From NCBI GenBank assembly GCA_964016885.1, contig CAXHJY010000198.1:1-62418 (forward strand): a DNA stretch of 62,418 nt, given 5' to 3'. This document shows, piece after piece, positions 16,370-61,584 of this stretch. Positions within the stretch are counted from its first letter, which is position 1; each line of letters opens with the position of its first letter. The notes beneath the pieces are model-generated. The model made no database searches and was not told the DNA's origin. It saw only the letters and a list, made by a program, of their open reading frames with translations. The stretch is from Eledone cirrhosa (Eukaryota). The position numbers were made by a program, and so were the translations under genes.

Positions 16370-17546
16370 GAGATCACAAAAGAAGGGGACAAATACAAAT
16401 GAGGAGTTTACATACAGGTATATGAAAATAAAACTATTAATAAAATAACAAATAACAATTGAAATCCCCAATAGGGGGGAGGCGTTACACAGGGGTTATA
16501 CACATCCCGAAAAAATGTACAACCCTCCTCACCAGGAGCACCAAGAGTGAGTACTCCCTTCCTCTCTTCCTCTTTTTCCTCAACCTATAGGCTTATATAG
16601 AGACAAGGCCCAACCACTCGGGCCATCTTTGCCACATTCACCCACCTTTTATAAACTTTGTTGGGGTACAGCACCTCTATCTCCATCCTGATTCTTCTTC
16701 CAAAATGATATTTGAAAAAACGAATTAGTTGTTCGCCGGAGAGAAAGGTGTCTGACCTCAGCCCTTTTAACCTCGTCCACAATATAATCTCTTTCACCAT
16801 AGCCATAACACATAGGAAAACCGCCTCTCCTTCGTTTTTGAAGGAGGGTGGCGGTTTGATCATGACAATTGACTCGGTGGTCAACTGGATTGGTCTCACC
16901 CACGACAAAAGTCGTTCTACATAGCCCCACAGGTCGGTAATGCCCGGGCAGTGTACAAATGCGTGCGCAACGGTTTCCTCGTCGCGCACGCATCTCGCAC
17001 AGATCTCTTTCGAAGGGTCCCTGCCCGGGCGCCAGTGTCTGTAGAGATTGTCTCGAATTGGTAGAACTCCTCTGTAGCACTGCCAGGCCAAGGACTTTTG
17101 GAAGTTGTCCATCGGTCCCGGGCGGAAGGTCCTACCGAACAGACTGGCCAGTTCGTCCTCCTCTACGCCTAGAGTTTCTCCGAGCGCGTTGTCGCACTTG
17201 CTGCGGACCAACCCTCTATAGAATGACGAAGTGGAGTCTCCACTGATCGCCGGGTCCGTTTGCCAGAGGGCTGTGAGCGCCTGAGCACATTTTCCTCGGT
17301 CTTTGCTTGACCCAGGACTGCAGCTCGGTCAGCGAGACGAATCGTGGGAAGGCTCGCCTCACGAACGGGGCCAACACCGGTTGTTCGGTGAAGAATACGT
17401 GGAGGCGCATCGTCAGCCACGACAACCCCAGCCCTCCGTTTGAAGGGTGTTGGCAGCAGATGGATCTTCTCACCAAAGGAGCCCGTTTCTTCCAAAGGAA
17501 TTGGAAATAGATAGATAGATAGGCAGAGACAGACAGATATATAGAC

Positions 17547-17587
<41 letters not shown>

Positions 17588-17678
17588 TATTTCTTTATTA
17601 GCCACAGGGGCACAAAAGAAGGGGACAAATACAAAGGGGGAAGTTTACATACAATAAAAACGTGTAAAATGTTATCAC

Positions 17679-17714
<36 letters not shown>

Positions 17715-17940
17715 TTCTTTATTTGCCACAAGGGCGCACAAGAAAAGGGGAAAATACAAAGACACATGCCGGGGATTTTACATACAATCGTGTAAAAATA
17801 TTATTAAAACAAACAAATTTAACAATCGAAATCCCCAATAGGGGATTTTACGAATGGGTTGTTTAATACCCCGTCGATAGAATAACCCTAAACTACAGGA
17901 GCGTGTTGTGCAAGTACTCCTTAGTTAGATAGATAGATAG
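16226..17940 (-). mobile_element. Stack of three 5'-truncated Tx1 3' ends separated by (GATA)n
   Basis: GATA 16226-16373; ORF2 C-terminus + 3'UTR 16374-17507 (CARC..ETVAHAFVHC); GATA; stub 17589-17678; GATA; stub 17714-17925; GATA. Confidence 0.9.
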
Positions 17941-24045: not shown

Positions 24046-24246
24046 TATTGGTAGTATGGTCCTACTAAAATATAACAATATATATATATATTATAAAAGT
24101 TCTGAAGTATGTCTCAAGCCAAAATACTCGTTAGGCTTATCCCGATTTCGTGGCGTGAAGTGACTGTGAGTACAAGACCTCTTTACCCTAGATAAACCTC
24201 CATTTATTCCTTGTTCTCATTTCAGCTGAGTATACTAGAGTAACGT

Positions 24247-24999
24247 GTCAGCCTTCCGAGTGATATCGTCTAGCGAAAGAGATGGAAATTAATTTTTCCG
24301 AGTACTCCAAGAGTGTAACTGTCTTAGGCCTCGTGTGTGTTAGCGGGAAGTCTGCCATTGCCGTCAGGCCATCACTATACCAAACGAATACTATTAATTC
24401 ACACAGGAGGGGGATTTATTTACGTGCCAGTAGAGGGAGGCATGATAGAGCTAATAGTTATGATAAGGCCTAGAATTTAAAGGTACTATATGGTGGTCAA
24501 AACCGGCAGCGCGGCGGGCCCCGGGGCGAAGCAACCCGCTCCGAGTAATTTCATTTACCGAAAGAAGGGGAAATTTATTTTTCCAAGCACTCAAGGAAGG
24601 CTTATCCACCAGAGCGCCAGGCGCGCAGCCGGGAAAGCCACCACATCAGTCGGAGTGCTCGGAAAAATAAATTTCCCCTTCTTTCGGTAAATGAAATTAC
24701 TCGGAGCGGGTTGCTTCGCCCCAGGGCCCACCGCGCCGCCGGTTTTGACCACCATATAGTACCTTTAAATTCTAGGCCTTATCATAACTATTAGCTGTAT
24801 CATGCCTCCCTCTACTGGCACGTAAATAAATCCCCCTCCTGTGTGAATTAATAGTATTCGTTTGGTATAGTGATGGCCTGAAGGCAATGGCAGACTTCCC
24901 GCTAACACACACGACGCCTAAGACAGTTACATTCCTGGAGTACTCGGAAAAATTAATTTCCATATCTTTCGCTAGACGATGTCACTCGGAACGGCTGAC
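24247..24999. mobile_element. Fold-back / MITE-like element with ~345-bp inverted arms and ~60-bp spacer
   Basis: 24247-24592 is reverse-complementary to 24653-24999 with about a dozen mismatches. Flanked on both sides by ACGT. Confidence 0.85.
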
Positions 25000-25589
25000 A
25001 CGTGGTTAGGAAGGGCTGGCCGGGATCTGCAGTCGTCACGTGTTATTGACTGCTAAACAAGGGCTTAATCTTTACTCTATACCCCACCCTGAAAACTTAG
25101 CGAGAATCTCTATAATACACTTAAACTTTTTCATAAAAGACTCTCTCTGTAAATTCTTTAACTAAATCTCGCAACCCAAACCCTAAACGTTCTTTAATTT
25201 TTTTAATTCATCCTATAACTCTAAATATAAGTTTAACGTTCCAAATTTCTGTTCACACATTATACCATACAGGCGCCCACTATATGTGCCTCTGTTAAGA
25301 TATAGGTTCTTAGGAAAAACATTTTTCGCGGCAATTTCTAGCCTGATTGTAGCATGACCTTAACGGTGTCTTTTCTTTTTTCTTTCCTTCTTTCTTCTTT
25401 CTCTTTGACGGAGAGGTAGTAGCACATTATAAGCTTTCGCCCCCTCACCAGATGGTCATAAATAGACCGAATAGCCAACACTTGAGGGCGACCGACTGAG
25501 GTAGAAGATGCTAGATGATCGGTCGTCCTCTTGTCTATGATTTTCAGCTCCATGGATTTTATCTGTTATATTCTTTTGTTATATTTCGA

Positions 25590-26152: not shown

Positions 26153-26424
26153 ATATATATATATATACGGGGTAACAAATAATAGTTAAATGCAGTCCAC
26201 TTAGGTAAAGTCCAGTTATGGTATTCCAGTTATGGTATTCGCATGCTCCGAAGATCTGACTGGTTATAATTTTGTATTGGCGATCGAGTAACGCGAAAAT
26301 AAGCGAATAGCGATCTCTAGACCTACCAGTTCGGAGAAACAAATGTAAGCTAAGAGATTAAAAACCTTTTTTGTATAGCAAACCATGTTAACCTTCTTTC
26401 CTGATTTATATATATATATATATA

Positions 26425-28425
26425 TCGTTTCTGAATTTGTTTAGCAAGATTCTTTATCTGAAATCGTGTGTTGAAACCGATATTGTTATACTTTCGAAGG
26501 GTCATGTTGCCAATAAGAAACACACGCACCAGTTGCTTTCACTTCAATTTATTATAATAAATTTATAAGAAATTTATAAATTTATTAATTTCTGGTTGGT
26601 TGGTTGGTTCCACAACCAGATAGTTGTTTATATATAGTCATAGTTCTTTCGTCACACACTCTGTGACCTCTTCAGTGACTGGGGATTCCTTTCTTCGTTT
26701 CTGTGTCTCTCCTTTGTTCTGTCCTACGCCATTTTGTTTCTGCGTGTGTGTTGTGTGCTCAGTCTGCGCATGCGCCACATCCGGGTGTCTGTGTGTGTTT
26801 ATGTTCATTTATTTATTTGTTTATTTACATGTTACTGGTTGGTTGTTTGTTCTATGTGTGTGTGTATTTTCATTTTGTCCTTAATTGTAAGTTGTGATGT
26901 TGCTGTTCCACTCATATTTTCTATTTAATTTTGGTTGTAATTCTTTTATGTTTATTGCCTCTGTAATTTGTCTAAACATTGCGTCTTTTCTGTGTGTAGA
27001 TTCTATTTTTATTTCTATGTTCTCTAATTTACCCTTGTGTTCTATTTTAGCATGTTGGTAGAGTACAGATGATTCTTTATTATCTTGAAGGTCTCGCCAG
27101 TGTTCATTTATCCGTTCCCCTACACTACGAGCTGTCTCACCTATGTACACTATATTTTTGTCTCTACAGTACATCTTATGCTATACACTACATTTCTAGT
27201 TTTACAGTTAATATTGGGGCTTATTTTACAGGTTATACATTTCTTATCTATACATGAGGGTCTTTGAAAAGGGTATGTCTTGCTAATAAGTGTTTTTACG
27301 GACTTACCTGGTCTTTCTACTATCTTAATATTGAGTTTATGTTTATTTAGGGCCCTTCTAAATTTGTAAGCTAATTCACCTCTAGGGGTTGTATCGATGA
27401 ACATTACACTCTGGTATTTATTGCTATCATACCATGAGTGTATTCTATTAGCCTTGTTCCTAGTTCTTTCTATTCTATTCCAAAATTTGCTCCTATACAA
27501 GGAGCAGGTCCCATTTATGTCATTATTTACCATTTTTTCCCATTTGGTTCTGGCTCCTCTATACACTCTGATTTTATCTCTCTGATTGTAGCCAGAGAAC
27601 TGCATACGGTGGATGAAGTGTTGTATGTGTCTCTCTAGTTCTTCGGGGTTGCACATGCGGGACATATTTCTCATCACCCGTACCAAATCCGCAATCAGTA
27701 TGTTGATTTTGGTATGGTCCGAGACGGCCGAGTTTCGCTGGATCAGATGTTTGGAAGTCATGGGTTTGGCATAATGAGAATGGAGGATTTGTTTTTTTGT
27801 TGTTAATGGTATCTAACTAGAGCTCTGTGACTAGTACAGGTAATCGATGGTTGGGGTGTTTACTTGGGTAGTCTATAGTAAGTCTAATGCTCTGGTGGAT
27901 GGAGTTTGCTATTTGCTGGATGCTTTCCATTGTGTTTTTCTCTAGTTCCTGACTGTTCTCTAATGGGGGTGTCTTGACTACGATCATCAACGTATCGGGA
28001 GTACATTATCAGGGTTAAGGGGTCTTCTAATTGTTCTTTAAGTTTAAGTCTATTGTCCCACCATACCATGAATAAGTTAGCTATGTCGCCTGCAATGCTA
28101 ACACCAATGGCTGCTCCTTCCTCTTGGGCATATGTTTTTCCATTAAATTTGAACATATGTTCCTTAAGGGTTAGTTTTATGCTGGCTCCTACCGCATGTG
28201 CAATCATTTTCTTCAGTTCATCGTGGTTTTCGGGTGTCCGTATGGCTCTGGTCCACCCGTTCCATCTATCTGTGTGGGTTTTCTTGGCCATTGAGGTAAT
28301 GGTAGGTGGTCTGCCTCTTGCTGGTCTTGTAGGGCACAGGTTGCTAAGGTCATATGTGTCTAGGTAATTATTACTATAGGTAAGCTTAAGTAGGAGTCCC
28401 AGCTCACTGGTATCAATCCTTAAAA
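26425..28425 (-). mobile_element. 5'-truncated Penelope-like retroelement (family A): RT + Cys linker + GIY-YIG + pLTR, frameshifted
   Basis: GAAIGVSIAGDIANLFM, YSRYVDD, linker CIDKKCITC..C, VVYSIRC..YIGETARSVGERINEH, EAINI..PKLN. The Cys-rich linker resembles the Neptune-type organisation. Confidence 0.92.
26636..26680 (-). ncRNA. Minimal type I hammerhead in family A pLTR
   Basis: AGTCA-CTGAAGA-G-GTCACA/TGTGAC-GAAA-GAAC-TA-TGACT. Five-bp helix I, six-bp helix II. Confidence 0.8.
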
Positions 28426-32687: not shown

Positions 32688-32757
<70 letters not shown>

Positions 32758-32884
32758 GTATAGTGGTAGCTATGGTGCTTCCGTAGGCGGTATGCCAAAA
32801 TTAGCACGCGATATTCATCAGAGTAGAGTGTAGATATTATAAAGAAAACGAAAAATCAGTGATGCATCTGGACTTAGTTTATTT

Positions 32885-32975
32885 CGTGTTACAAATGTTT
32901 CGCCGGCATGTAGCTCGAGTCATGGTCCTTGTATGGATCTGGCTGATTCTACTTCTGCGGGTTCTTTCAGACACG
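32885..32975 (-). ncRNA. Type I hammerhead candidate with long helix II
   Basis: CGTGT-CTGAAAGA-[long helix II]-GAAA-CATTTG-TA-ACACG. Perfect helix I, slightly aberrant core. The flank AATCAGTG.TGCATC is shared with the 5447 motif. Confidence 0.6.
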
Positions 32976-33030
32976 GGTGTTATGTCCGGAGGAAATTTTA
33001 TCACAGTGATAAATAGATAGATAGATAGAT

Positions 33031-33105
33031 TTCTTTATTTGCCACAAGAGCGCACAAGAAAAGGAGTCAATACAAGGACATATGCCGGGGATTTTACGTA
33101 CAATC
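33031..33105 (-). mobile_element. 75-bp Tx1 3'-terminal stub between GATA tracts
   Basis: Closely matches stub 17714-17790 (TTTCTTTATTTGCCACAAG.GCGCACAAGAAAAGG...). Confidence 0.85.
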
Positions 33106-33174
<69 letters not shown>

Positions 33175-33405
33175 ATTTCTATTTATTTGCCACGAGGGCA
33201 CAAAAGAAGGGGACATTTACACAGTGGGGGAGTTTACATAAATCGAGTAAAGAAAAAAGGAATAACAATAATAATATAACAATAAAAAGTCCTCAAAAGG
33301 GAGGGGGCGTGTTGGGGATTGCACATATCCCCAAAAAGTGTGCAACTCTTTTCGCGGGGGAAGCCCAGAGAGGAGGCGCTCCCCCTTTCCTCTTCACTTC
33401 TTCAC

Positions 33406-36400
33406 CTACAGAACAATGTAGAGAGAAGGCCCATTTACACGGGCCATTCTCGCTTCTTTCACCCACCTTTCATAAAACTGTCTGGGACCAAGCACTTCTC
33501 TCTCCATCCTGATTCTTCTTCCGAAGTGGTATCGGAAGAAGTAAACCAGGTGATGGCCGGAGAGAAAGTCACCCGACCTCAGACCTTTCAGGCGCGTCCA
33601 CCACACAACCTCTTTCATCATGGCTATTACGCACAGAAAGACCGCCTCTGCTTCATTTCTGAAGGGAGGAGGTGGCTTGATGTTCACCACAGACTCGGCG
33701 GTTAATCGAATCGGCGCCACACGCGACAGCAGTCGTTCGACGTAGCCCCACAGATCGGCAACGCCCGGGCAGTGTACCAGTGCATGCGCAACGGTTTTCT
33801 CGTGGCGCACGCATCTGGGACAGATCTTTTTCGCGGGATCCCTGCCCGGGCGCCCGTGTCTGTAGAGCTTTTCTCGAACGGGCAGAGCCCCCCGGTAACA
33901 CTGCCAGGCTAGGGACCTCTGGAAGTTGTCCATGGGTCCCGGGCCGAAAGTTCTACCGAATAGGCTGGCCAGTTCGTCCTCCTCCATGCCTAGCGACTCT
34001 CCAAGGGTGTCGTCGCCCCTGCTAGCCACCAACCCTCTATAGAATGTCGAGGTGGATTCTCCACTGACAGTCGGGTCCGCTTGCCAGATAGCCGTGAGCG
34101 CCTGGGCACACTCGGTGTGCCAGTTGCCCAGTTTTCTCGGTATTTGCTTCACCCAGGATTGCAGTTCGGTGAGCGAGACGAGCTGTGGGAAGGCTCGCCT
34201 CACAAACGGGGCCCACACCGGCTGACCGTTGAGGAATACCTGTAGATGCCGTAGCCTCAATGCGTGCCTACACATCAACAGCCACGGCATACCCAGCCCT
34301 CCTTTCGAAGGGTGCTGGCAGCAGATGGATCTCCTCACCATGGGAGGCCGCTTCTTCCAGAGGAACTGGAAGAGCATGCGTTCCATGATGGTGAGCTTTT
34401 CCTTGGGGCAAGGCACGACGGTCAGGCGGTAGTAGATGACGGACGCTATGTAAGCGTTCGTCACCTCCGCCCGACCTTTCAGTGATAGTTTGCACTTGGC
34501 CCACTTCTGGGTCAGCGCAAACACCCTGCTCGTCACCTCGCCCCAATTCTTCTCCACCTGGAGGTCCGGTCCGAACCAGACCCCGAGCAGCTTCACCGGG
34601 CCCTCCGTCCACCGCCCGACGACACCGTCTAACGGCATCGGTTTGCCCCTCCACGTTCCGAGTTGCAAACCGACTGACTTGTCCTGGTTCAGCTTAGCCC
34701 CCGTCAGCCTTTCGTATTCCTCCAGTAGGGTGGCGATCGCCCCGATTTCCGAGGCGTCCGCCACCATTACTGTTACGTCGTCGGCATAGGCCGAGACCGC
34801 TTTGTGCAATCCCGGTTCCAGGGGTATGCCCCGCAGCAACTCCAACTTCCGCAGCAGTGGCTCGAGAGTCAATACGTACAGAAGGGAGGAGAGGGGGCAC
34901 CCCTGTCTGATGGATCGGGTGATTTGAAACGGCTCCGAGAGGTAGCCGTTTACTTTAATCCTAGAGTAGATGTTGCCACTGTGCATGGCAGAAATCCAGC
35001 CCCTGAAAACGGGTCCGAAGCCCGCCGCCGCTAGCACCGCATCCAGGTAACCATGGTCGACCCTATCGAACGCCTTAGATTGATCCAAGTTGATCAGGGC
35101 CCCACCAAAGCCGGGTTCGTAGCCAACCCTCTCTATGATGTATCGCATGAGGTGGAGGTTGTCGTGAATGGACCTGGACGGGATAGCGCATGTCTGCGCG
35201 TCTCCCACCAAACCACCCACCACAAGCGCCAACCTCTTCGCCAACACCTTGGCCAAAATCTGTAACTCTGCATTCAGCAGAGTTATGGGCCTAAAGTTAC
35301 TTAAGTCGTCCCCCTTGCTCTCGTCCTTCCTCACTAGCGTGACCACGCCCTTGGTCACAGAACAGGGAATTTTTCCGTTCTGTTGCCAGTTGCAATAGAC
35401 AGCCTCGAGGAGTTCGGAGAACAAGACCGGCATAGCTAAATAAAGTTCGTATGGTAGACCATCGAGACCCGGGGATTTGCGTCTGCTGCATTGGCTGAGC
35501 GCTTCCCCGATTTCAGTGACTGTGATTGGCCTTTCGCAGCACTCCGCTTCGCCGCTCGAAAGACGCGGTAGACCGTCGAGGTATGGACCGAAGTCCACAT
35601 CCCCGTCCGGCCCCCCGCCACCTCCGAACAGTCGAGCAAAGTGCCTTTGAAAGGTCTCGCACATTCGCTCAGGTTCAAGGATCACCCGTCCATCCTGGTC
35701 TCGCAAAGACCGAATGGTGGATTTAATCCCACTCTTGGCTTCTGTCACGCGGGCCCAGCTAACAGCTTTGGTCCCCTCGTTTCCTAAAGCACGTATTTTA
35801 CTTCGGACAACGCAGCCTTCGTGCTTCGCGTCAAAGAACTGGCTCAATGCCGTTCTCGTCGCTAACACTCTGGCTACGTCTCCGCTCCTAATCGCCTCTT
35901 CTAGTTTATCTGTTAACTCCCTTTCCCTCCTATTTCTATTCGCCGCTAGTTCCTTACTGTAACCTATCGAACTTACTCTAATCTCTCTCTTTAGAGATAT
36001 CCACCACCTACTGTTGACGATCGCTCCCGTCAACCGCATCTTAACTAAGCTACTAATCCGGTTTCTGTAATCTTTCTTTGTCGGTAAGGACAAGTTCATC
36101 TTCCAGTAACCGGGACCCTGTCTATGCGTTCTATCAAGGTTGACCACGCAGGTCACTAATTTGTGATCTGAATAGCCAACCATGATCAGTTCTGGACAAC
36201 TAAATACGTCCCTATCCTTACTCCTAACCAAAAACCTATCTAGGTACGATCTAGATTGTCCACTGCGGTTTGCCCAGGTCCAGGTTTGCGCAGTTGGACA
36301 ATCTAGTCGAAATCTATCGACCAGGTCGAATCGATCGAGTAACCCCTTGAGGCTGCTACACCCCCCTCTATCGGGACATGCCCCTGCATAGTCCCAACGC

Positions 36401-36840
36401 GCATCTAGGATTCCATTCCAGTCCCCCACTAAAAGCAGGGAACGCGACGTTCCTAGAAAAGTCTCCAGACGCTGGAAGAAGTCGGCTCTTTCCGCCCCGA
36501 AGGGAGCATAAAGACCGACCAGTCTGAAAGCCCCGCCTTCACCGCCTCCGACGTCCAGCACCAGTAATCGACCCCCCGGGTCCGAGTGAACAATCTGTAC
36601 GTCGAGAGTCAGACGTTTATCCAGCAGTACGGCAACTCCCCCCCCCCCCCCGCCTCCGGGTTGACAGAGAGATGCGTGCATCTCAAAGTCATCGAAGGCG
36701 GGCGCCAGCTGTCTCACGCTGCTGATCCGACTCTCGCAAACAACCATCACATCTATACTTTGTGACCTGAGGTCACTTAGAAGCTTTGCTTGCTTCCAAG
36801 CTGAGCCCAGGCCACGCGCGTTCAAACAGCCAACTCTCAA
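33406..36840 (-). CDS. ORF2: APE endonuclease, reverse transcriptase, C-terminal CCHC (open, non-ATG start)
   Basis: 1144 aa; NARGL, GDWN, SYLDR, SDH, QGCPLS, YADD, CPRC..HALVHC. Confidence 0.95.
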   Translation of the reverse strand: MRVGCLNARGLGSAWKQAKLLSDLRSQSIDVMVVCESRISSVRQLAPAFDDFEMHASLCQPGGGGGGGVAVLLDKRLTLDVQIVHSDPGGRLLVLDVGGGEGGAFRLVGLYAPFGAERADFFQRLETFLGTSRSLLLVGDWNGILDARWDYAGACPDRGGCSSLKGLLDRFDLVDRFRLDCPTAQTWTWANRSGQSRSYLDRFLVRSKDRDVFSCPELIMVGYSDHKLVTCVVNLDRTHRQGPGYWKMNLSLPTKKDYRNRISSLVKMRLTGAIVNSRWWISLKREIRVSSIGYSKELAANRNRRERELTDKLEEAIRSGDVARVLATRTALSQFFDAKHEGCVVRSKIRALGNEGTKAVSWARVTEAKSGIKSTIRSLRDQDGRVILEPERMCETFQRHFARLFGGGGGPDGDVDFGPYLDGLPRLSSGEAECCERPITVTEIGEALSQCSRRKSPGLDGLPYELYLAMPVLFSELLEAVYCNWQQNGKIPCSVTKGVVTLVRKDESKGDDLSNFRPITLLNAELQILAKVLAKRLALVVGGLVGDAQTCAIPSRSIHDNLHLMRYIIERVGYEPGFGGALINLDQSKAFDRVDHGYLDAVLAAAGFGPVFRGWISAMHSGNIYSRIKVNGYLSEPFQITRSIRQGCPLSSLLYVLTLEPLLRKLELLRGIPLEPGLHKAVSAYADDVTVMVADASEIGAIATLLEEYERLTGAKLNQDKSVGLQLGTWRGKPMPLDGVVGRWTEGPVKLLGVWFGPDLQVEKNWGEVTSRVFALTQKWAKCKLSLKGRAEVTNAYIASVIYYRLTVVPCPKEKLTIMERMLFQFLWKKRPPMVRRSICCQHPSKGGLGMPWLLMCRHALRLRHLQVFLNGQPVWAPFVRRAFPQLVSLTELQSWVKQIPRKLGNWHTECAQALTAIWQADPTVSGESTSTFYRGLVASRGDDTLGESLGMEEDELASLFGRTFGPGPMDNFQRSLAWQCYRGALPVREKLYRHGRPGRDPAKKICPRCVRHEKTVAHALVHCPGVADLWGYVERLLSRVAPIRLTAESVVNIKPPPPFRNEAEAVFLCVIAMMKEVVWWTRLKGLRSGDFLSGHHLVYFFRYHFGRRIRMEREVLGPRQFYERWVKEARMARVNGPSLYIVL

Positions 36841-36845
36841 TTGAT

Positions 36846-38683
36846 CTATTTTGGTGTTGAAAGTGAAGAAAGAAAAGCACTTACCTCTCCGGGTTGCGTA
36901 ATTTCCATGGCATCAGGTGTGTTGGGTGGAGGGATGTTTTGTGGTGGTGTGGGGGTACACGTGTGTGGTGGGGTTGGGGTATTTGGAGTTGTGTCAGGGA
37001 GAGGGGCGGTTATGGGGAAATCTTTCAAGAGGACGCGATTCAACGGTTTTAAACAGGGGGGGGGGGGCTCACGTCCCGTCTAAATTGTTCTTTTAAGGAA
37101 CGATAAAGGTCCATAGGGACCTTTATCATTTTTAAATGGGTGAAGTTCTCTGTTGAGATAAAGTTTGGCCCTTCGGTCTGCACCATAGGGTTATTGTTTA
37201 TTAATTTAACCAGTTTTTTGTTTTCTTTATTTATATATGTGTATTGCAACGTCTTTTTTTGTGATGCTGTCAATGTTTCGGAGAGGGGAGGCGCAGATTT
37301 ATTTTTGTTTGTTGAGGGTGGGGTGTTTTTGATTGGAGTTAGTGTTTGTGTGTGGGTTATTTGTGGTGTGCTGGGTGTGTGTTTTCTTTTTTTTCTTTTA
37401 ACTTGTCTGAAGGCTTCTCCTCCTTCTTCTTCAGAAGTTGGGGGAAACTCTTCAGCGCTAGGTGGGAGGGACGTGTTGTGTGATTGTTTTTTTTTTGCGG
37501 GAGGGGTAGATTTGTTACTGTTTTTTTAATTATTTGTTTGGAATGGGTTTTGTGGTGGTGGTGGTAATGTTTGTGTCGTGCTTGTGGTTGGTGATGGTGG
37601 TGGTGATGTTTGTGTTGTGGTTGGTGGTGGTGATTTTTGTGTCGTGCTTGTGTTTGGTGCTGGTGGTGGTGATGTTTGTGTTGTGTTTGTGGTTGGTGGT
37701 GTCTGTATTTTGTTTGCTGTGTGTGGTATTAGTGTATTTTTGGAGGTGGGTGGTGTTGGTGTACTGTTTGTGGTGGGTGTGGGCAATAGTCCTTTTTGGG
37801 GGATACGTTTCGGGCAGTTAGCCTTAACGTGTCCCCTTTCCATGCATAAATAGCATGCTGGTCTTCTCCCCTCTACAATTATGTCTATTGGGGTAAGGTC
37901 ATCTAGCCAGATGCGATCCTGGATTTGTGCTATTCTTTCGGGCCTCATTTGGACTAGTATGTCGAGGCCCATTCCCAGGAACGCATCTCTAGTTGCCTTC
38001 CCCATTGACAGCATTGTGTCTTCGCCCATATCAATGAAGCCAGCAATAGCCCACCAGAAGTCCATTGTGGGCAGCATTGTTTTTACTTTTACTCTCTGTG
38101 TTCTTCTACCCATGTAGGAGGGATAGAAGCTATATGTTGTCGACGAGAGTGGGCTTAGGGAAAGCTTCTCCGCCGTTTCTTTGTCTCTTGTTAGGACCGA
38201 AATGCTGCCATAGAGTCGGTCCTTTCGTATGAAGAGAATATTCTTCATATAGTCTTTTAGGACTAACTCTATTTCCATTTGGCTGGGCTGTGCTGGCTTT
38301 CTTGTCTGGTTCAGTATAGTTCTGTAGAGAACTGTGTTTTCTGCTCTGGCTTTCTTGAATTCTGGGGGGGAGTTAATGGAAAACATTCCGTTCTCCCCCA
38401 AAACAATGTGTTTCTTTGCTTCGGCCAGTTTTTCTCTGGCGGCAGTTAGGTCAATTGGTGTGTATGTAATGGATTGTTTTGTTTTCTGGGCGAAAGTTGC
38501 CCTGTCGTTATTTGTATTATTTTCTGTTTGTTTGTTTTCTGTTTGCTCATTTTCCTTAACATTTGTTTTTTCATTTTGTTTGTTTGTTTCAATGTCTAAT
38601 TTTGTTGTAATTATTTTTTGTTCTTCAGACTTGGGGGGCGTGGCAGAGCTAATGGCAGACATGTCTGCCATCTTTTCCGCCAT
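36846..38683 (-). pseudogene. ORF1 of copy A, disrupted
   Basis: Nonsense change at 37528 (AAA>TAA) and a G12 versus G7 run at 37056-37067 relative to copy B. Confidence 0.9.
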
Positions 38684-38884
38684 GCTGTCAAGAAAGAAAT
38701 TTTTCGGCAAAAATAGATATTTATTTTACCCCCTAAAAAGGGGGTAAATGCAAAAATGTTTCCCTAAATAACAGGGGTTAGTGTTCCAAATGTGTTGCAC
38801 TAAAAAATTTATCCGGTACTTACAATAGTAAGGGTAAATCCCGATGGAATAGCGGAGCCGATGCGAAGCGTGTCTTACTCTATC

Positions 38885-38917
<33 letters not shown>

Positions 38918-38918
38918 G

Positions 38919-38961
<43 letters not shown>

Positions 38962-39209
38962 GGATAGATAGATAGATAAATTTCTATTTATTTGCCACGA
39001 GGGCACAAAAGAAGGGGACATTTACACAGTGGGGGAGTTTACATAAATCGAGTAAAGAAAAAGGAATAACAATAATAATATAACAATAAAAAGTCCTCAA
39101 AAGGGAGGGGGCGTGTTGGGGATTGCACATACCCCCGAAAAGTGTGCAACTCTTTTCGCGGGGGAAGCCCAGAGAGGAGGCGCTCCCCCTTTCCTCTTCA
39201 CTTCTTCAC

Positions 39210-42200
39210 CTACAGAACAATGTAGAGAGAAGGCCCATTTACACGGGCCATTCTCGCTTCTTTCACCCACCTTTCATAAAACTGTCTGGGACCAAGCACT
39301 TCTCTCTCCATCCTGATTCTTCTTCCGAAGTGGTATCGGAAGAAGTAAACCAGGTGATGGCCGGAGAGAAAGTCACCCGACCTCAGACCTTTCAGGCGCG
39401 TCCACCACACAACCTCTTTCATCATGGCTATTACGCACAGAAAGACCGCCTCTGCTTCATTTCTGAAGGGAGGAGGCGGCTTGATGTTCACCACAGACTC
39501 GGCGGTTATTCGAATCGGCGCCACACGCGACAGCAGTCGTTCGACGTAGCCCCACAGATCGGCAACGCCCGGGCAGTGTACCAGTGCATGCGCAACGGTT
39601 TCCTCGTCGAGCACGCATCTGGGACAGATCTTTTTCGCGGGATCCCTGCCCGGGCGCCCGTGTCTGTAGAGCTTTTCTCGAACGGGCAGAGCCCCCCGGT
39701 AACACTGCCAGGCTAGGGACCTCTGGAAGTTGTCCATGGGTCCCGGGCCGAAAGTTCTACCGAACAGGCTGGCCAGTTCGTCCTCCTCCATGCCTAGCGA
39801 CTCTCCAAGGGTGTCGTCGCCCCTGCTAGCCACCAACCCTCTATAGAATGTCGAGGTGGATTCTCCACTGACAGTCGGGTCCGCTTGCCAGATAGCCGTG
39901 AGCGCCTGGGCACACTCGGTGTGCCAGTTGCCCAGTTTTCTCGGTATTTGCTTCACCCAGGATTGCAGTTCGGTGAGCGAGACGAGCTGTGGGAAGGCTC
40001 GCCTCACAAACGGGGCCCACACCGGCTGACCGTTGAGGAATACCTGTAGATGCCGTAGCCTCAATGCGTGCCTACGCATCAACAGCCACGGCATACCCAG
40101 CCCTCCTTTCGAAGGGTGCTGGCAGCAGATGGATCTCCTCACCATGGGAGGCCGCTTCTTCCAGAGGAACTGGAAGAGCATGCGTTCCATGATGGTGAGC
40201 TTTTCCTTGGGGCAAGGCACGACGGTCAGGCGGTAGTAGATGACGGACGCTATGTAAGCGTTCGTCACCTCCGCCCGACCTTTCAGTGATAGTTTGCACT
40301 TGGCCCACTTCTGGGTCAGCGCAAACACCCTGCTCGTCACCTCGCCCCAATTCTTCTCCACCTGGAGGTCCGGTCCGAACCAGACCCCGAGCAGCTTCAC
40401 CGGGCCCTCCGTCCACCGCCCGACGACACCGTCTAACGGCATCGGTTTGCCCCTCCACGTTCCGAGTTGCAAACCGACTGACTTGTCCTGGTTCAGCTTA
40501 GCCCCCGTCAGCCTTTCGTATTCCTCCAGTAGGGTGGCGATCGCCCCGATTTCCGAGGCGTCCGCCACCATTACTGTTACGTCGTCGGCATAGGCCGAGA
40601 CCGCTTTGTGCAATCCCGGTTCCAGGGGTATGCCCCGCAGCAACTCCAACTTCCGCAGCAGTGGCTCGAGAGTCAATACGTACAGAAGGGAGGAGAGGGG
40701 GCACCCCTGTCTGATGGATCGGGTGATTTGAAACGGCTCCGAGAGGTAGCCGTTTACTTTAATCCTAGAGTAGATGTTGCCACTGTGCATGGCAGAAATC
40801 CAGCCCCTGAAAACGGGTCCGAAACCCGCCGCCGCTAGCACCGCATCCAGGTAACCATGGTCGACCCTATCGAACGCCTTAGATTGATCCAAGTTGATCA
40901 GGGCCCCACCAAAGCCGGGTTCGTAGCCAACCCTCTCTATGATGTATCGCATGAGGTGGAGGTTGTCGTGAATGGACCTGGACGGGATAGCGCATGTCTG
41001 CGCGTCTCCCACCAAACCACCCACCACAAGCGCCAACCTCTTCGCCAACACCTTGGCCAAAATCTGTAACTCTGCATTCAGCAGAGTTATGGGCCTAAAG
41101 TTACTTAAGTCGTCCCCCTTGCTCTCGTCCTTCCTCACTAGCGTGACCACGCCCTTGGTCACAGAACAGGGAATTCTCCCGTTCTGTTGCCAGTTGCAAT
41201 AGACAGCCTCGAGGAGTTCGGAGAACAAGACCGGCATAGCTAAATAAAGTTCGTATGGTAGACCATCGAGACCCGGGGATTTGCGTCTGCTGCATTGGCT
41301 GAGCGCTTCCCCGATTTCAGTGACTGTGATTGGCCTTTCGCAGCACTCCGCTTCGCCGCTCGAAAGACGCGGTAGACCGTCGAGGTATGGACCGAAGTCC
41401 ACATCCCCGTCCGGCCCCCCGCCACCTCCGAACAGTCGAGCAAAGTGCCTTTGAAAGGTCTCGCACATTCGCTCAGGTTCAAGGATCACCCGTCCATCCT
41501 GGTCTCGCAAAGACCGAATGGTGGATTTAATCCCACTCTTGGCTTCTGTCACGCGGGCCCAGCTAACAGCTTTGGTCCCCTCGTTTCCTAAAGCACGTAT
41601 TTTACTTCGGACAACGCAGCCTTCGTGCTTCGCGTCAAAGAACTGGCTCAATGCCGTTCTCGTCGCTAACACTCTGGCTACGTCTCCGCTCCTAATCGCC
41701 TCTTCTAGTTTATCTGTTAACTCCCTTTCCCTCCTATTTCTATTCGCCGCTAGTTCCTTACTGTAACCTATCGAACTTACTCTAATCTCTCTCTTTAGAG
41801 ATATCCACCACCTACTGTTGACGATCGCTCCCGTCAACCGCATCTTAACTAAGCTACTAATCCGGTTTCTGTAATCTTTCTTTGTCGGTAAGGACAAGTT
41901 CATCTTCCAGTAACCGGGACCCTGTCTATGCGTTCTATCAAGGTTGACCACGCAGGTCACTAATTTGTGATCTGAATAGCCAACCATGATCAGTTCTGGA
42001 CAACTAAATACGTCCCTATCCTTACTCCTAACCAAAAACCTATCTAGGTACGATCTAGATTGTCCACTGCGGTTTGCCCAGGTCCAGGTTGGCGCAGTTG
42101 GACAATCTAGTCGAAATCTATCGACCAGGTCGAATCGATCGAGTAACCCCTTGAGGCTGCTACACCCCCCTCTATCGGGACATGCCCCTGCATAGTCCCA

Positions 42201-42639
42201 ACGCGCATCTAGGATTCCATTCCAGTCCCCCACTAAAAGCAGGGAACGCGACATTCCTAGAAAAGTCTCCAGACGTTGGAAGAAGTCGGCTCTCTCCGCC
42301 CCGAAGGGAGCATAAAGACCGACCAGTCTGAAAGCCCCGCCTTCACCACCTCCGACGTCCAGCACCAGTAATCGACCCCCCGGGTCCGAGTGAACAATCT
42401 GTACGTCGAGAGTCAGACGTTTATCCAGCAGTACGGCAACTCCCCCCCCCGCCTCCGGGTTGACAGAGAGATGCGTGCATCTCAAAGTCAACGAAGGCGG
42501 GCGCCAGCTGTCTCACGCTGCTGATCCGACTCTCGCAAACAACCATCACATCTATACTTTGTGACCTGAGGTCACTTAGAAGCTTTGCTTGCTTCCAAGC
42601 TGAGCTCAGGCCACGCGCGTTCAAACAGCCAACTCTCAA
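39210..42639 (-). pseudogene. ORF2 of copy B, single frameshift in the APE domain
   Basis: C9 run at 42442-42450 versus C14 in copy A splits the ORF into 42421-42639 and 39210-42491. Confidence 0.9.
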
Positions 42640-42644
42640 TTGAT

Positions 42645-44477
42645 CTATTTTGGTGTTGAAAGTGAAGAAAGAAAAGCACTTACCTCTCCGGGTTGCGTAA
42701 TTTCCATGGCATCAGGTGTGTTGGGTGGAGGGATGTTTTGTGGTGGTGTGGGGGTACACGTGTGTGGTGGGGTTGGGGTATTTGGAGTTGTGTCAGGGAG
42801 AGGGGCGGTTATGGGGAAATCTTTCAAGAGGACGCGATTCAACGGTTTTAAACAGGGGGGGCTCACGTCCCGTCTAAATTGTTCTTTTAAGGAACGATAA
42901 AGGTCCATAGGGACCTTTATCATTTTTAAATGGGTGAAGTTCTCTGTTGAGATAAAGTTTGGCCCTTCGGTCTGCACCATAGGGTTATTGTTTATTAATT
43001 TAACCAGTTTTTTGTTTTCTTTATTTATATATGTGTATTGCAACGTCTTTTTTTGTGATGCTGTCAATGTTTCGGAGAGGGGAGGCGCAGATTTATTTTT
43101 GTTTGTTGAGGGTGGGGTGCTTTTGATTGGAGTTAGTGTTTGTGTGTGGGTTATTTGTGGTGTGCTGGGTGTGTGTTTTCTTTTTTTTCTTTTAACTTGT
43201 CTGAAGGCTTCTCCTCCTTCTTCTTCAGAAGTTGGGGGAAACTCTTCAGCGCTAGGTGGGAGGGACGTGTTGTGTGATTGTTTTTTTTTTGCGGGAGGGG
43301 TAGATTTGTTACTGTTTTTTTTATTATTTGTTTGGAATGGGTTTTGTGGTGGTGGTGATAATGTTTGTGTCGTGCTTGTGGTTGGTGATGGTGGTGGTGA
43401 TGTTTGTGTTGTGGTTGGTGGTGGTGATTTTTGTGTCGTGCTTGTGTTTGGTGCTGGTGGTGGTGATGTTTGTGTTGTGTTTGTGGTTGGTGGTGTCTGT
43501 ATTTTGTTTGCTGTGTGTGGTATTAGTGTATTTTTGGAGGTGGGTGGTGTTGGTGTACTGTTTGTGATGGGTGTGGGCAATAGTCCTTTTTGGGGGATAC
43601 GTTTCGGGCAGTTAGCCTTAACGTGTCCCCTTTCCATGCATAAATAGCATGCTGGTCTTCTCCCCTCTACAATTATGTCTATTGGGGTAAGGTCATCTAG
43701 CCAGATGCGATCCGGGATTTGTGCTATTCTTTCGGGCCTCATTTGGACTAGTATGTCGAGGCCCATTCCCAGGAACGCATCTCCAGTTGCCTTCCCCATT
43801 GACAGCATTGTGTCTTCGCCCATATCAATGAAGCCAGCAATAGCCCACCAGAAGTCCATTGTGGGCAGCATTGTTTTTACTTTTACTCTCTGTGTTCTTC
43901 TACCCATGTAGGAGGGATAGAAGCTATATGTTGTCGACGAGAGTGGGCTTAGGGAAAGCTTCTCCGCCGTTTCTTTGTCTCTTGTTAGGACCGAAATGCT
44001 GCCATAGAGTCGGTCCTTTCGTATGAAGAGAATATTCTTCATATAGTCTTTTAGGACTAACTCTATTTCCATTTGGCTGGGCTGTGCTGGCTTTCTTGTC
44101 TGGTTCAGTATAGTTCTGTAGAGAACTGTGTTTTCTGCTCTGGCTTTCTTAAATTCTGGGGGGGAGTTAATGGAAAACATTCCGTTCTCCCCCAAAACAA
44201 TGTGTTTCTTTGCTTCGGCCAGTTTTTCTCTGGCGGCAGTTAGGTCAATTGGTGTGTATGTAATGGATTGTTTTGTTTTCTGGGCGAAAGTTGCCCTGTC
44301 GTTATTTGTATTATTTTCTGTTTGTTTGTTTTCTGTTTGCTCATTTTCCTTAACATTTGTTTTTTCATTTTGTTTGTTTGTTTCAATGTCTAATTTTGTT
44401 GTAATTATTTTTTGTTCTTCAGACTTGGGGGGCGTGGCAGAGCTAATGGCAGACATGTCTGCCATCTTTTCCGCCAT
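42645..44477 (-). CDS. ORF1: nucleic-acid-binding protein with CX2CX4HX4C zinc knuckle and Pro/Thr-rich repeats
   Basis: Open frame of 619 codons, first ATG at 44477; CYLCMERGHVKANC. Confidence 0.92.
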   Translation of the reverse strand: MAEKMADMSAISSATPPKSEEQKIITTKLDIETNKQNEKTNVKENEQTENKQTENNTNNDRATFAQKTKQSITYTPIDLTAAREKLAEAKKHIVLGENGMFSINSPPEFKKARAENTVLYRTILNQTRKPAQPSQMEIELVLKDYMKNILFIRKDRLYGSISVLTRDKETAEKLSLSPLSSTTYSFYPSYMGRRTQRVKVKTMLPTMDFWWAIAGFIDMGEDTMLSMGKATGDAFLGMGLDILVQMRPERIAQIPDRIWLDDLTPIDIIVEGRRPACYLCMERGHVKANCPKRIPQKGLLPTPITNSTPTPPTSKNTLIPHTANKIQTPPTTNTTQTSPPPAPNTSTTQKSPPPTTTQTSPPPSPTTSTTQTLSPPPQNPFQTNNKKNSNKSTPPAKKKQSHNTSLPPSAEEFPPTSEEEGGEAFRQVKRKKRKHTPSTPQITHTQTLTPIKSTPPSTNKNKSAPPLSETLTASQKKTLQYTYINKENKKLVKLINNNPMVQTEGPNFISTENFTHLKMIKVPMDLYRSLKEQFRRDVSPPCLKPLNRVLLKDFPITAPLPDTTPNTPTPPHTCTPTPPQNIPPPNTPDAMEITQPGEVSAFLSSLSTPK

Positions 44478-44708
44478 GCTGTCAAGAAAGAAATTTTTCG
44501 GCAAAAATAGATATTTATTTTACCCCCTAAAAAGAGGGTAAATGCAAAAATGTTTCCCTAAATAACAGGGGTTAGTGTTCCAAATGTGTTGCACTAAAAA
44601 ATTTATCCGGTACTTACAATAGTAAGGGTAAATCCCGATGGAATAGCGGAGCCGATGCGAAGCGTGTCTTACTCTATCAAGATAGATAGATAGATAGATA
44701 GATAGATG

Positions 44709-44747
<39 letters not shown>

Positions 44748-44748
44748 G

Positions 44749-44784
<36 letters not shown>

Positions 44785-44941
44785 TATAGATAGATAGATA
44801 GATAGATATCAATATCTATACAGGGCAATAAATGATTACAATTTCTGTTTATGTATTATTTATACAAACACACCCATTTTCTCTATCTCAATCTCCCCTT
44901 CCACATACGTGGGCAGAAACACACACATACGAAATATTAAT

Positions 44942-49436: not shown

Positions 49437-49456
49437 TATATATATGTGTGTGTGTG

Positions 49457-50748
49457 AGGACAAACTTTTTCATATGTACCCATTTGCAGCGCCGCAGCTC
49501 CATTATTATCATATTTACACATATCTTTTCCTCCGCTGCCACCAGTCTGTTTCGTTCTTTGTGTCTTTACCCTTTCTAACAGTCTCTCTCTCTGTTAGCC
49601 TCTTCCTCACCTTTCACTCACTCACTCTCTGTCACTACCTCTCCTCCTCCCCTTTCTTCCCGTTTGACCTGTCCGTAATCCTTTTCTCGCGGGCACCTGA
49701 CCAAGCCGGTATGATTTTTTTTTTCTCTCTCTCTCGTCTGCGACTTCACAGAACTTATGTTTACCGAATTCGCAGACCAAACCCCTTCTTCCTCCCGTTA
49801 GACCTGTGCGAAATTCCTTCCTTGCTCACATTTCAACCAGGTTTGATGGTTTTTATTCTCTCGTTCACGATTCCACCGAATTTATATTCATAGAAATCTG
49901 GGACTTGTTTCCTTCTTCGTCACTTTCTGCTGCTTAAACCATTTTGTTTGTTTACCCTAGCGTCCCATTTTATTTACGTGTCGCAACGACTTTTTTTTAG
50001 CCGTTGCTCGCACCAACCTGAGGTATATGGCCTGTAATGCGACGAAATGCCTACGACGGTTGGATGGCCACTGATGAGGACAAACTTTTTCATATATAAC
50101 CCATTTGCAGCGCCGCAGCTCCATTATTATCATATTTACACATATTTTTTCCTCCGCTGCCACCAGTCTGTTTCGTTCTTTGTGTCTTTACCCTTTCTAG
50201 CAGTCTCTCTCTCTGTTAGCCTCTTCCTCACCTTTCACTCACTCACTCTCTGTCACTACCTCTCCTCCTCCCCTTTCTTCCCGTTTGACCTGTCCGTAAT
50301 CCTTTTCTCGCGGGCACTTGACCAAGCCGGTATGAATTGTTTTTCTCTCTCTCTCGTCTGCGACTTCACAGAACTTATGTTTACCGAATTTGCAGACCAG
50401 ACCCCTTCTTCCTCCCGTTAGACCTGTGCGAAATTCCTTCCTTGCTCACATTTCAATCAGGTTTGATGGTCTTTATTCTCTCGTTCACGATTCCACCGAA
50501 TTTATATTCATAGAAATCTGGGACTTGTTTCCTTCTTCATCACTTTCTGCTGTTTAAACCATTTTGTTTGTTTACCCTAGCGTCCCCTTTATTTAGGTGT
50601 CCCAACGACTTTTTTTTAGCCGTTGCTCGCACCAACCTGAGGTATTTGGCCTTTAATGCGACGAAATGCCTACGACGGTTGGATGGCCACTGATGAGGAC
50701 AAGCTTTTTCATATGCAGCGCCGCAGCTCCATCATTATCATATTTACA
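49457..50748 (+). repeat. ~620-bp tandem repeat, about 2.1 units
   Basis: GAGGACAA.CTTTTTCATAT recurs at 49457, 50076 and 50695. A related family member is inverted at 60951-62418. Confidence 0.9.
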
Positions 50749-50879
50749 TATATATATATGTATATATATATATAAATATATATATGTGTGTGTGTATATA
50801 TACATATATTTTTATGTGAATATTTATATATGTGTATATGTGTATATCTATATATGTGTATAATATGTATATATATATA

Positions 50880-52485
50880 TTTCCTTTCTGAATTTGTTTA
50901 GTAAGATTCTTTATCTGAAAACGTGTGTTGAAACCGATATTGTTATACTTTGGGAGGGTCATGTTGCCAATAAGAAACACACGCACAAGCTTTCACTTCA
51001 ATTTATTATAAATTAAATTCATAAATTTAGGAATTTATAAATTTCCGGTTGGTTGGTTGGTTCCACAATCAGATGATTGTTCATATCTTGTCAAAGTTCT
51101 TTCGTCACACATTCTGTGACCTCTTCAGTGACTGGGGATTCTTTTCTTTGTTTTTGTGCCCCTCCTTTGTTCTGTCCTACGCCAGCTTGTTTTTGTGTGT
51201 GTTGTGTGCTTTGTTTGCGCATGTGTTACATCCGGGTGTCTGTGTGTGTTTATATTTGTTTAGTTATTTGTTTATTTACATGTTACTGGTTGGTTGTTTG
51301 TTCCATGTGTGTGTTTTTTTCATTTTATCCTTAATTGTAAGTTGTGATGTTGCTGTTCCATTCATGTTTTCTATTTAATTTTGGTCGGAGTTCATTTATG
51401 TTTATTGCCTCTGTGATTTGTCTAAACATTGCGTCTTTTCTGTGTGTAGATTCTATTTTTATTTCTGTTCTCTAATTTACCCTTATGTTCTATTTTATCA
51501 TGTTGGTGGAGGACAGATGATTCTTTACTATCTTGAAGCTCTCGCCAGTGTTCATTTATCCGTTCCCCTATACTACGAGCTGTCTCACCTATGTACACTA
51601 TATTCTTATCTCTACATTGTCCTTCAGTACATCTTATGCTATATACTACATTTCTAGTTTTATAATTAATATGGGGGCTTAATTTACAGATTATACATTT
51701 CTTATCTGTACAGGGAGGTCTTTGAAAAGGGTATGTATTGCTAATAAGTCTTTTTATGGAGGTACCTGGTCTTTCTACTATCTTAATATTGAGTTTATAT
51801 TTGTCTAGGGCCCTTCTAAATGTGTAAGCTAATTAATCTCTAGGGGTTGTATCGATGAACATTACACTCTGGTATTTATTGCTATAATACCATGAGTTTA
51901 TTCTATTAGCCTTATTCCTAGTTCTTTCTATTCTATTCCAAAATTTGCTCCTATACAAGGGGCAGGTCCCATTTGTGTCATTATTTCCCATTTTTTCCCA
52001 TTTGGTTCTGGCTCCTCTATATACTCTGATTTTATCTCTCTGATTGTAACCAGAGAACTGCATACGGTGGATGAAGTGTTGTATGTGTCTCTCTAGTTCT
52101 TTTGGGTTGCACATGCAACCAACTAGTAACATGTAAATAAACAAATAAATAAACAAATATAAACTCACACAGACACCCGGATGTAACACATGCGCAAACT
52201 AAGCAAACTAAGCACACAACACACACAAAAACAAGATGGCGTAGGACAGAACAATGGAGAGGCACAACAACAAAGAAAATAATCCTCAGTCACTGAAGAG
52301 GTCACAGAAAGTGTGACGAAAGAACTTTGACAAGATATGAACAATCATCTGATTGTGGAACCAACCAACCAACCGGAAATTTATGAATTCCTAAATTTAT
52401 AAATTTAATTTATAATAAATTGAAGTGAAAGCACCTGGTGCGTGTGTTTCTTATTGGCACCATGACCCTCCCAAAGTATAACAAT
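50880..52485 (-). mobile_element. Family A PLE: pLTR + degraded GIY-YIG/RT end (minus) with an inverted pLTR at its 5' side (52115-52485); hammerheads at 51090-51133 (-) and 52288-52331 (+)
   Basis: Collinear with 26425-27657; inversion junction at ~52115. Confidence 0.9.
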
Positions 52486-60858: not shown

Positions 60859-60950
<92 letters not shown>

Positions 60951-60954
<4 letters not shown>

Positions 60955-61515
60955 TAAAGTGAGTCTTTCATCAGTGATCTTCCAACCATCATTGGTATTT
61001 CATCGCTTTAAAGACCATATACCTCCGGTTGGTGCGAGCAACGGCTAAAAAAATTCTTTGGGACACGTAAATAAAGGGGACACGAGAGTGTAAACAAACA
61101 AAGATGGTGAAGCAACGAAAAGTGAGGAAGAAAGAGTAAAATCCCGAATTTCTATGAATATAAGTTCGGTGAAATCGTGAACGAGAGAGAATAAAGACCA
61201 TCAAGTCTGTGAATTCGGTGAACATAAGTTCTGTGAAATCGTAGACGAGAGAGAGAAAAAAGCGAACCAGCCTGACCAAGAGTGCGAAAGAAAAGAATTA
61301 CGCACAGGTCAAACGGGAAGGAGGAGGAGGAGAGGTAGTAACAGAGAGTGAGTGAGTGAAGGGTGAGGAAGAGGCTAACAGAGAGAGTGACTGTTAGAGA
61401 GGGTAAAGATACAGAGAAAGAGAAAGCAGTAAGAACGAAATAGACGGGTCATAGCGGGAGAAAAAATATGTGTAAATATGAGAATAAACGTGCTGCGTGG
61501 TTGCTAACGGGTTAC

Positions 61516-61584
<69 letters not shown>

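Follow-up and report, generated by a model that had tools for sequence, protein, structure and literature searches.

A Tx1-like LINE that likely targets GATA repeats, arranged head to tail in an Eledone cirrhosa contig

We analyzed a 62,418-nucleotide stretch of Eledone cirrhosa DNA (contig CAXHJY010000198.1 of assembly GCA_964016885.1, forward strand; here called the window) that contains a head-to-tail array of a long interspersed nuclear element (LINE). On its predicted domain content and bit scores, the element is Tx1-like, and the family likely targets GATA repeats. The family is real and probably target specific; its repeat motif is new, and its branch is separate from that of the microsatellite-specific elements Kibi and Koshi. 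An earlier reading of the window from its sequence alone (the original prediction) had proposed a preference of a Tx1-like LINE for GATA tracts. Our analysis supports that proposal, and a second GATA cluster and four 5'-truncated junctions strengthen the case for it.

Self-comparison of the window revealed a 5.9-kb direct repeat with 99.2% identity, which corresponds to copies A and B of a LINE of the apurinic/apyrimidinic endonuclease (APE) type. A, B, and a stub, s0, lie head to tail on the minus strand with GATA tracts between them. In the element's sense, the order is T3, B, T2, A, T1, the s0 stub, and T0, and the repeat reads (TCTA)n. The pieces of the array are as follows.

33008-33030: T0, outer GATA tract on the 3' side of the array in the element's sense (GATA, AATA, GATAx3)
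33031-33105, minus strand: s0, 75-bp 5'-truncated 3'-end stub with hairpin and AATAAA
33106-33173: T1, pure (GATA)17
33174-38886, minus strand: copy A, full length, 5713 bp
38887-38978: T2, tract between A and B (GATAx7-GATG-GATAx10-GATG-GATAx4)
38979-44680, minus strand: copy B, full length, 5702 bp
44681-44808: T3, outer tract on the 5' side, 32 units (GATAx6-GATG-GATAx9-GATG-GATAx9-TATA-GATAx5)

Global alignment of A with B from end to end showed 27 substitutions and three homopolymer indels (1, 5, and 5 nt), in agreement with the predicted two copies of about 5.7 kb that differ at some two dozen sites, plus a stub. GATA tracts delimit each piece and poly(A) is absent from A and B, as had also been predicted; the full-length 3' ends read hairpin-AATAAA-8 nt-(TATC)n in the element's sense. 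The s0 stub belongs to an older subfamily, with 68/75 bases matching a second stub, s2, described below. There is no element beyond T3.

The second GATA cluster, which the original prediction had missed, lies at 16227-17939, 15 kb from the array, and holds three older 5'-truncated pieces.

16227-16371: old, much-interrupted GATA tract
16375-17506, minus strand: O1, 1.1-kb 5'-truncated older copy, 74% identical to B; its 5' break adjoins a GATA tract
17589-17679, minus strand: s1, ~90-bp 3'-end stub between GATA tracts
17715-17927, minus strand: s2, ~210-bp 3'-end stub between GATA tracts, with its outer tract at 17928-17939

The s2 and s1 stubs could stem from a single read-through event. A 13-mer (one mismatch) is common to 32995-33011 and 17666-17679, behind the tracts of stubs s0 and s2, and is possibly a 3' transduction of a downstream stub.

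Across all six pieces, 12/12 ends lie no more than 8 nt from (GATA)3+, while GATA tracts with 10 nt added make up 1.1% of the window. The window contains 3416 bp of AT tracts, 890 bp of AC tracts, and 492 bp of AGAT tracts; AT tracts are 7 times more plentiful than AGAT tracts, and AT and AC tracts together hold 0 of the 12 ends. The 5' junctions adjoin a tract in 6/6 cases, 5/6 of them in the same register, and four of these junctions come from truncated copies of subfamilies up to 26% apart. Each of the four truncated copies is broken on its 5' side at a different position in the element, with GATA repeats directly after the break. The 3'-end motif occurs five times in the window against a shuffle mean of 1.04 (0/100 shuffles reach 5), and each occurrence adjoins a tract. 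The outer tracts, T3 and 16227-16371, look older than the insertions because they are long or carry many interruptions. Neither of the mammalian-type L1 traits, a poly(A) tail and a TTTT/AA target, was seen. This evidence comes from two loci in one window and represents at most five independent insertions. Target preference has been assigned where >20% of copies genome-wide share a target (PMC4494074); the figure here is 6/6 copies, within the window only.

The same observations bear on whether the (TCTA)n is instead a microsatellite tail made by the element itself, as in CR1, L2, and RTE, with insertion being untargeted. All six 3' ends do run into the repeat, and 8/9 GATA tracts in the window touch an element, both of which count in favor of this explanation. 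We nevertheless consider it very improbable: a tract is found at the 5' end of 4/4 truncated copies, where a tail cannot appear, and no element lies beyond the outermost tracts on the 5' side. Since an element that is truncated at its 5' end brings no tract along on that side, we read the GATA repeat as a target and not only a tail.

How A and B came to lie side by side is a separate question. We lean toward unequal exchange between the tracts flanking one insertion. T2 matches the left part of T3 up to and including both GATG interruptions, and T1 has no interruption; unequal exchange of T3 with T1 around a single insertion predicts such a hybrid tract. A and B also share identical 5' junctions and the ATA at the start of ORF2, which we count in favor of this origin. 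The coding differences between A and B look neutral (16/24 nonsynonymous versus a neutral expectation of 0.69; p=0.83) and are evenly spread (p=0.46). Older copies cover 16 of the differences; the derived state lies in A at about 10 of these and in B at 6. The divergence of 0.47% corresponds to about 0.7 million years, if the rate and host apply (Jukes-Cantor distance 0.09 = 25 million years, as implied in PMC13282606). Site-specific array expansion by unequal exchange has been described for R1 of Drosophila (10.1101/158386), which resembles this array as a site-specific LINE with its target between units and differs in belonging to the R1 clade and targeting 28S ribosomal DNA.

An alternative, closer to the original prediction of a young array, is that an active master recently inserted A and B separately into one tract. 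The stubs do show repeated insertion into these tracts, and a shared 5' end is expected of full-length copies from one master. We think this picture doubtful, however, as copying both GATG interruptions of T3 into T2 would take a target duplication of ~80 bp, against 12-20 nt in relatives of the element, and the neutral-looking A-B differences give no sign of purifying selection. A and B could also be two alleles of one insertion that the assembler placed in tandem at the GATA tract. Such a false join predicts the same hybrid T2, the neutral and evenly spread 0.47% divergence could be heterozygosity, and all three indels are in homopolymers, which is typical of long-read error. Against this stand real arrays of the lineage in another animal and other tandem duplications in the window, and we judge a misjoin unlikely.

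Each full-length copy carries two open reading frames (ORFs), as listed below.

33406-36849, minus strand: ORF2 of A, open frame, with APE endonuclease, reverse transcriptase (RT), and C-terminal zinc knuckle
36846-38683, minus strand: ORF1 of A, broken by a stop at 37526-37528 and a homopolymer frameshift near 37060
39210-42648, minus strand: ORF2 of B, with a homopolymer frameshift near 42441, in the endonuclease region
42645-44477, minus strand: ORF1 of B, open, 610 amino acids, with predicted tandem RNA recognition motifs (RRMs), a CCHC knuckle, and a Pro/Thr-rich tail

ORF2 matched RVT_1 and Exo_endo_phos in Pfam, with zf-RVT below the cutoff, and it aligned with human L1 ORF2p over residues 26-878 (173 bits). 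In this alignment the catalytic endonuclease residues are present, at positions that we take to be N14, E43, Y115, D145, N147, T192, S202, D205, and H230 of L1. T192 and S202 of this numbering are given in PMC1950540. ORF1 had zero Pfam matches. A structure model of its core (231 amino acids, from a 13-row alignment, pLDDT 79) matched RRM proteins best (VIA Z 9.6, root mean square deviation 2.4, 81 aligned; Foldseek matches to tandem-RRM proteins down to E 1e-4), and the alignment places a CCHC knuckle (CX2CX4HX4C) after the RRM core.

The original prediction correctly described ORF1 as open in B and the ORF2 frame as open in A, and it proposed that a functional element can be reconstructed from these two. 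That is not assured. ORF2 starts with ATA in both A and B, compared with ATG in R3, a sister family in the window, and in 10/13 aligned homologs (the remaining three lack the N terminus), and the first in-frame ATG lies beyond the first endonuclease motif. Human L1 ORF2 tolerates a non-AUG start, and the ATA may be either a shared lesion or a non-AUG start. ORF2 of A is also the more decayed of the two, with R to C at residue 881 and E to K in the E-T motif of the zinc knuckle, and it has two more Gly than R3. With one broken ORF per copy and ATA at both ORF2 starts, neither copy qualifies as an intact autonomous element.

Proteins of the Tx1 clade combine an ORF2 of N-terminal APE endonuclease, RT, and C-terminal zinc knuckle with an ORF1 of RRM domains and a CCHC knuckle. 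The window element has this ORF2 plan, and the predicted model and alignment give it this type of ORF1. A phmmer search with ORF2 scored 323-324 bits to two YTX2-named fish proteins, 319-385 bits to four clade-mates, and 173 bits to human L1; a partial TX1-named protein scored 90 bits, and the YTX2 and TX1 names are automatic. In a 29-row RT tree, whose rows do not include Xenopus Tx1L or a named L1, the window element and a group of relatives at about 40% identity form a long-stemmed clade (100/100). This lineage falls outside a clade (100/99) in which YTX2-named fish proteins are grouped with an element flanked by (TC)n; it does not nest within the fish microsatellite-flanked clade. The domain plan, ORF1, and bit scores make the element Tx1-like, and Tx1 membership, as in the original prediction, has only moderate support from the tree (93/89).

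The prediction was also right that microsatellite-specific Tx1 families exist for other motifs, namely, (TC)n, (TTC)n, (TTCC)n, and (TTTC)n (PMC4494074, PMC3812793). Kibi, on (TC)n, and Koshi, on (TTC)n, are teleost Tx1 LINEs (Kojima and Fujiwara 2004, cited in PMC4494074 and PMC3812793), and Tx1 families of crocodilians, which target (TTCC)n and (TTTC)n, cluster with them (PMC4494074). Kibi and Koshi share with the window family an APE-type ORF2, a CCHC ORF1, and a simple-repeat target that is pyrimidine rich on the element's sense strand, but the window target is (TCTA)n, which is none of the four motifs of that group, and the window lineage lies outside the clade of their stand-ins. Those stand-ins are L007 and L008, chosen for their (TC)n 5' flank in place of Kibi and Koshi themselves. 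The crocodilian families likewise have a tetranucleotide microsatellite target, with a different motif. The literature that we searched, outside of which lie most subscription papers and Repbase Reports as well as Repbase and Dfam, where such a family may be listed, yielded no GATA- or TCTA-specific LINE. In Octopus vulgaris, 80 L1-Tx1 families have been reported, 13 of them recently active with 421 insertions (PMC13282606), and the window family may be among those consensus sequences if the host is an octopus. We found no target analysis of these families in the available parts of that paper, and the words "GATA" and "target" occur 0 times in its supplement.

Protein searches returned one fragment at 68% identity and a group at 38-45%, after which identity fell to ~30%; a look-up of 10 of the proteins yielded no names. 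The 40% group is in GTDB record CAXXMW01 (titled uncultured Arenicella; loci L085-L125 and L129-L171), in 18 small contigs (C2-C19; 644,730 bp) with animal-type microsatellites, and 16/18 contigs have head-to-tail arrays of mostly intact elements. These contigs are animal DNA and a contamination of the GTDB genome. The relatives are a sister lineage of the window family (100/100) and have a homologous ORF1, an AATAAA end without poly(A), a C-Y-N-G-U-loop 3' hairpin, a splice donor at the ORF1/ORF2 boundary, and head-to-tail arrays. Unlike the window family, they have non-repeat target duplications of 12-20 nt, a second hairpin before AATAAA, a 0.7-kb 3' untranslated region, and an ORF2 that starts with ATG. 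Within their arrays, ORF1 varies far more (38-100%) than ORF2 (91-100% outside contig C13). Their second hairpin, between the conserved one and AATAAA, is strongly covarying, and a donor-like GGTRAGT stands at or just after the ORF2 stop.

The 3' ends of the relatives show poly(A) or a microsatellite in 0/67 cases; AATAAA is followed by a 12-20-nt sequence typical of the array or subfamily. On contig C17 both outer flanks carry this sequence, which forms a target duplication of 18 bp with two mismatches. Truncated copies in the arrays are preceded by the same spacer, and two successive copies are truncated at the same residue; the relatives stack on their own 12-20-nt target duplications. Since the relatives also form arrays and lack poly(A), both features belong to the lineage as a whole, and it is GATA targeting that sets the window branch apart. 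As a trait of the entire lineage, the missing poly(A) does not result from GATA targeting. Because the relatives use non-repeat sites, GATA targeting probably arose independently. A telomeric role of the relatives' arrays was considered and rejected, as several have unique DNA on both sides and there is no common polarity.

A metagenome scan gave 80 loci, mostly at 22-35% identity and with no close relative among them, and a single-protein search of genome contigs gave 41 candidates, none of which was confirmed. GATA tracts of at least 16 nt were seen at 0/88 loci screened. A scan for the junction pattern gave 16 matches in genome contigs and 4 in viral contigs, about chance level for collections of that size, and the ESM Atlas returned only generic RT clusters, which carried no taxa. 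Of 17 sequencing runs listed, 13 contain part of B, and 5, from two studies with two organism labels, contain at least half of its words; no RNA run is among the listed holders, and we do not use these runs as evidence. (TC)n stands at the 5' flank of the distant Tx1-like, Kibi-like elements L001, L007, L008, and L060.

Two conserved features would act at the RNA level, namely, a hairpin just before AATAAA and the splice-donor consensus at the ORF1/ORF2 boundary.

33182-33200, minus strand: 3' hairpin (TGCC-CTCGT-GGCA) and AATAAA of A
38987-39005, minus strand: 3' hairpin and AATAAA of B
36879-36887 (A) and 42678-42686 (B), minus strand: splice-donor consensus GAG|GTAAGT

The hairpin reads GCC-CYYGT-GGC in the window and GGC-CTNGT-GCC in the relatives. 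Over 13 sequences, 92% of cells are paired and 2/4 pairs have changed on both sides; 0/500 shuffles paired as highly, and slid controls gave 25-60%. Stem-loops at the 3' end mark "stringent" LINEs (PMC3747384).

The boundary donor, 35 nt upstream of the ORF2 start, is the best scoring of 268 GT sites in B under a donor weighting of our own. R3 has its best donor at the same place, and the donor is present in 6/7 relative loci checked (not in L116). Among distant loci, a donor scoring at least 7 was found in 0/10, and two have a 6.6 site just inside ORF2. The ORF1 protein sequence at the donor site is not conserved. The ORF2 stop codon TAG of B is a candidate acceptor that, on a crude score, shares third place among 375 AG sites; the predicted splice would remove 3474 nt, and ORF1 would then end in GEVKK, three codons past the joint. 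The donor could therefore remove ORF2 as an intron, giving an ORF1-only mRNA; alternatively, it may bind U1 without splicing. An in-frame ORF1-ORF2 fusion was rejected, since nearby AG sites are out of frame, and a 5' intron ahead of ORF1 was dropped, the acceptor before the ORF1 ATG being outside the top 10 of 375. In the same literature, with the same limits, we found no LINE with ORF2 as an intron.

The sister family R3 lies at the left end of the window.

1-5377, minus strand: R3, decayed sister family, 71% DNA identity over ORF2, with a (TTA)n 5' flank

R3 has the boundary donor and the ORF2 ATG, and its 3' end lies beyond the window. Its position next to (TTA)n, at one junction, makes a target switch within the lineage possible. 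The 5' region of R3 has a perfect palindrome with 12-bp arms and A-runs near 5176-5250.

LINEs of this class insert by an APE endonuclease nick followed by target-primed reverse transcription. We consider it rather likely that the two-ORF Tx1-like LINE described here inserts into (GATA)n in this way and that the A-B pair arose later by unequal exchange. The endonuclease would nick the GATA strand. Shortly after AAUAAA, the transcript would end with a few UCUA units read from the tract next to the element; pairing of these units with the nicked strand would prime the cDNA, so that poly(A) would not be copied. The 5' end, full or truncated, would be joined within the same tract, thereby leaving target on both sides and allowing new copies to stack head to tail. 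More tentatively, use of the boundary donor may splice ORF2 out of some transcripts and so yield an ORF1-only mRNA. The endonuclease of Tx1L is sequence specific in vitro, and a beta-hairpin loop affects its selectivity (PMC1950540).

Several observations weigh against this reading. The targeting evidence is confined to two loci in one window, with A and B probably one event, and as 8/9 GATA tracts touch an element, some tracts may also have been created or extended by the element itself. O1 is without the last ~25 nt (hairpin and AATAAA) and joins its tract directly (16369-16375), yet it lies in a GATA tract. The window lineage joins the Tx1-named fish proteins at only 93/89 (a 16-row branch, unstarred), and in a 70-row quick tree the two are not joined. 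Folding of the 3' ends was no better than that of shuffles (z -0.57, 0.13, and -0.47), and the covariation of the hairpin comes from a single split that separates two lineages. A search of 645 kb gave no spliced copy lacking ORF2, and the donor was kept in 64/64 ORF1 ends of the relatives. Finally, R3 has an endonuclease loop similar to the one in A and B (NRIGLSR versus NRSGQSR); a similar loop beside a different flank, (TTA)n, is a poor fit with specificity read by the loop.

These last data raise the possibility, which we hold tentatively and find somewhat improbable, that the RNA rather than the endonuclease mainly chooses the target. A loose nick would be productive only where the DNA pairs with a 12-20-nt tail read from the source locus past AAUAAA, and one landing in GATA would have made the preference heritable. 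Consistent with this, the 12-20-nt sequence downstream of AATAAA is particular to each relative subfamily; at two different outer flanks (contigs C9 and C19), AATAAA is followed by an identical 12-mer, which the outer 5' flanks of that subfamily match only partly; and R3 combines its similar loop with a (TTA)n flank. RNA-DNA pairing also aids priming in I factor, R1Bm, and R2Ol (PMC6007223). On the other hand, the in vitro specificity of the Tx1L endonuclease itself (PMC1950540) argues for the protein. In addition, although a search of 195 kb of the relatives' flanks gave only 6 scattered two-mismatch matches, the sequences that the relatives share may still mark sites within a dispersed repeat. 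Target choice by RNA is compatible with our preferred explanation of target-primed insertion into (GATA)n. A broader version seems to us unlikely: an undescribed invertebrate Tx1-like branch in which the RNA tail, read 12-20 nt beyond AAUAAA into the last target, sets the site, so that the branch switches heritably among unique sites, (TTA)n, and (TCTA)n with little change in its endonuclease, and in which the whole of ORF2 lies in an intron that is spliced out to make ORF1-only mRNA. If true, this branch would be an independent origin of microsatellite targeting, with a site that could be set by editing a short RNA tail.

Other features of the window stand apart from the element. Directly left of the array, 32755-33011 resembles the terminus of a Penelope-like element and carries, on its minus strand, AATAAA and a motif similar to a hammerhead; this stretch had no Rfam match and no second copy in the window. 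There is a 761-bp palindromic element resembling a miniature inverted-repeat transposable element at 24243-25003 and a 1.25-kb dispersed repeat (26407-27658 versus 50864-52116, 91%), and local tandem duplications lie at 49455-50753 and 60945-62410. Rfam at gathering score gave zero matches in window positions 1-38400 and in 10 relative loci, and no tRNA was found in window positions 1-38400.

Microsatellite-specific LINEs are few in number, and how they find their targets is not well understood (PMC3812793). Conservation of the boundary donor suggests that it could serve to adjust the ORF1:ORF2 ratio, a mechanism that we did not find described for LINEs in the literature searched. The findings have a bearing on the design of retrotransposon insertion tools; GATA tracts themselves are too many to serve as a single safe site. 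The window family, its relatives at non-repeat sites, and its 71% sister R3 at (TTA)n provide close pairs with which to ask whether the endonuclease or the RNA tail chooses the target.

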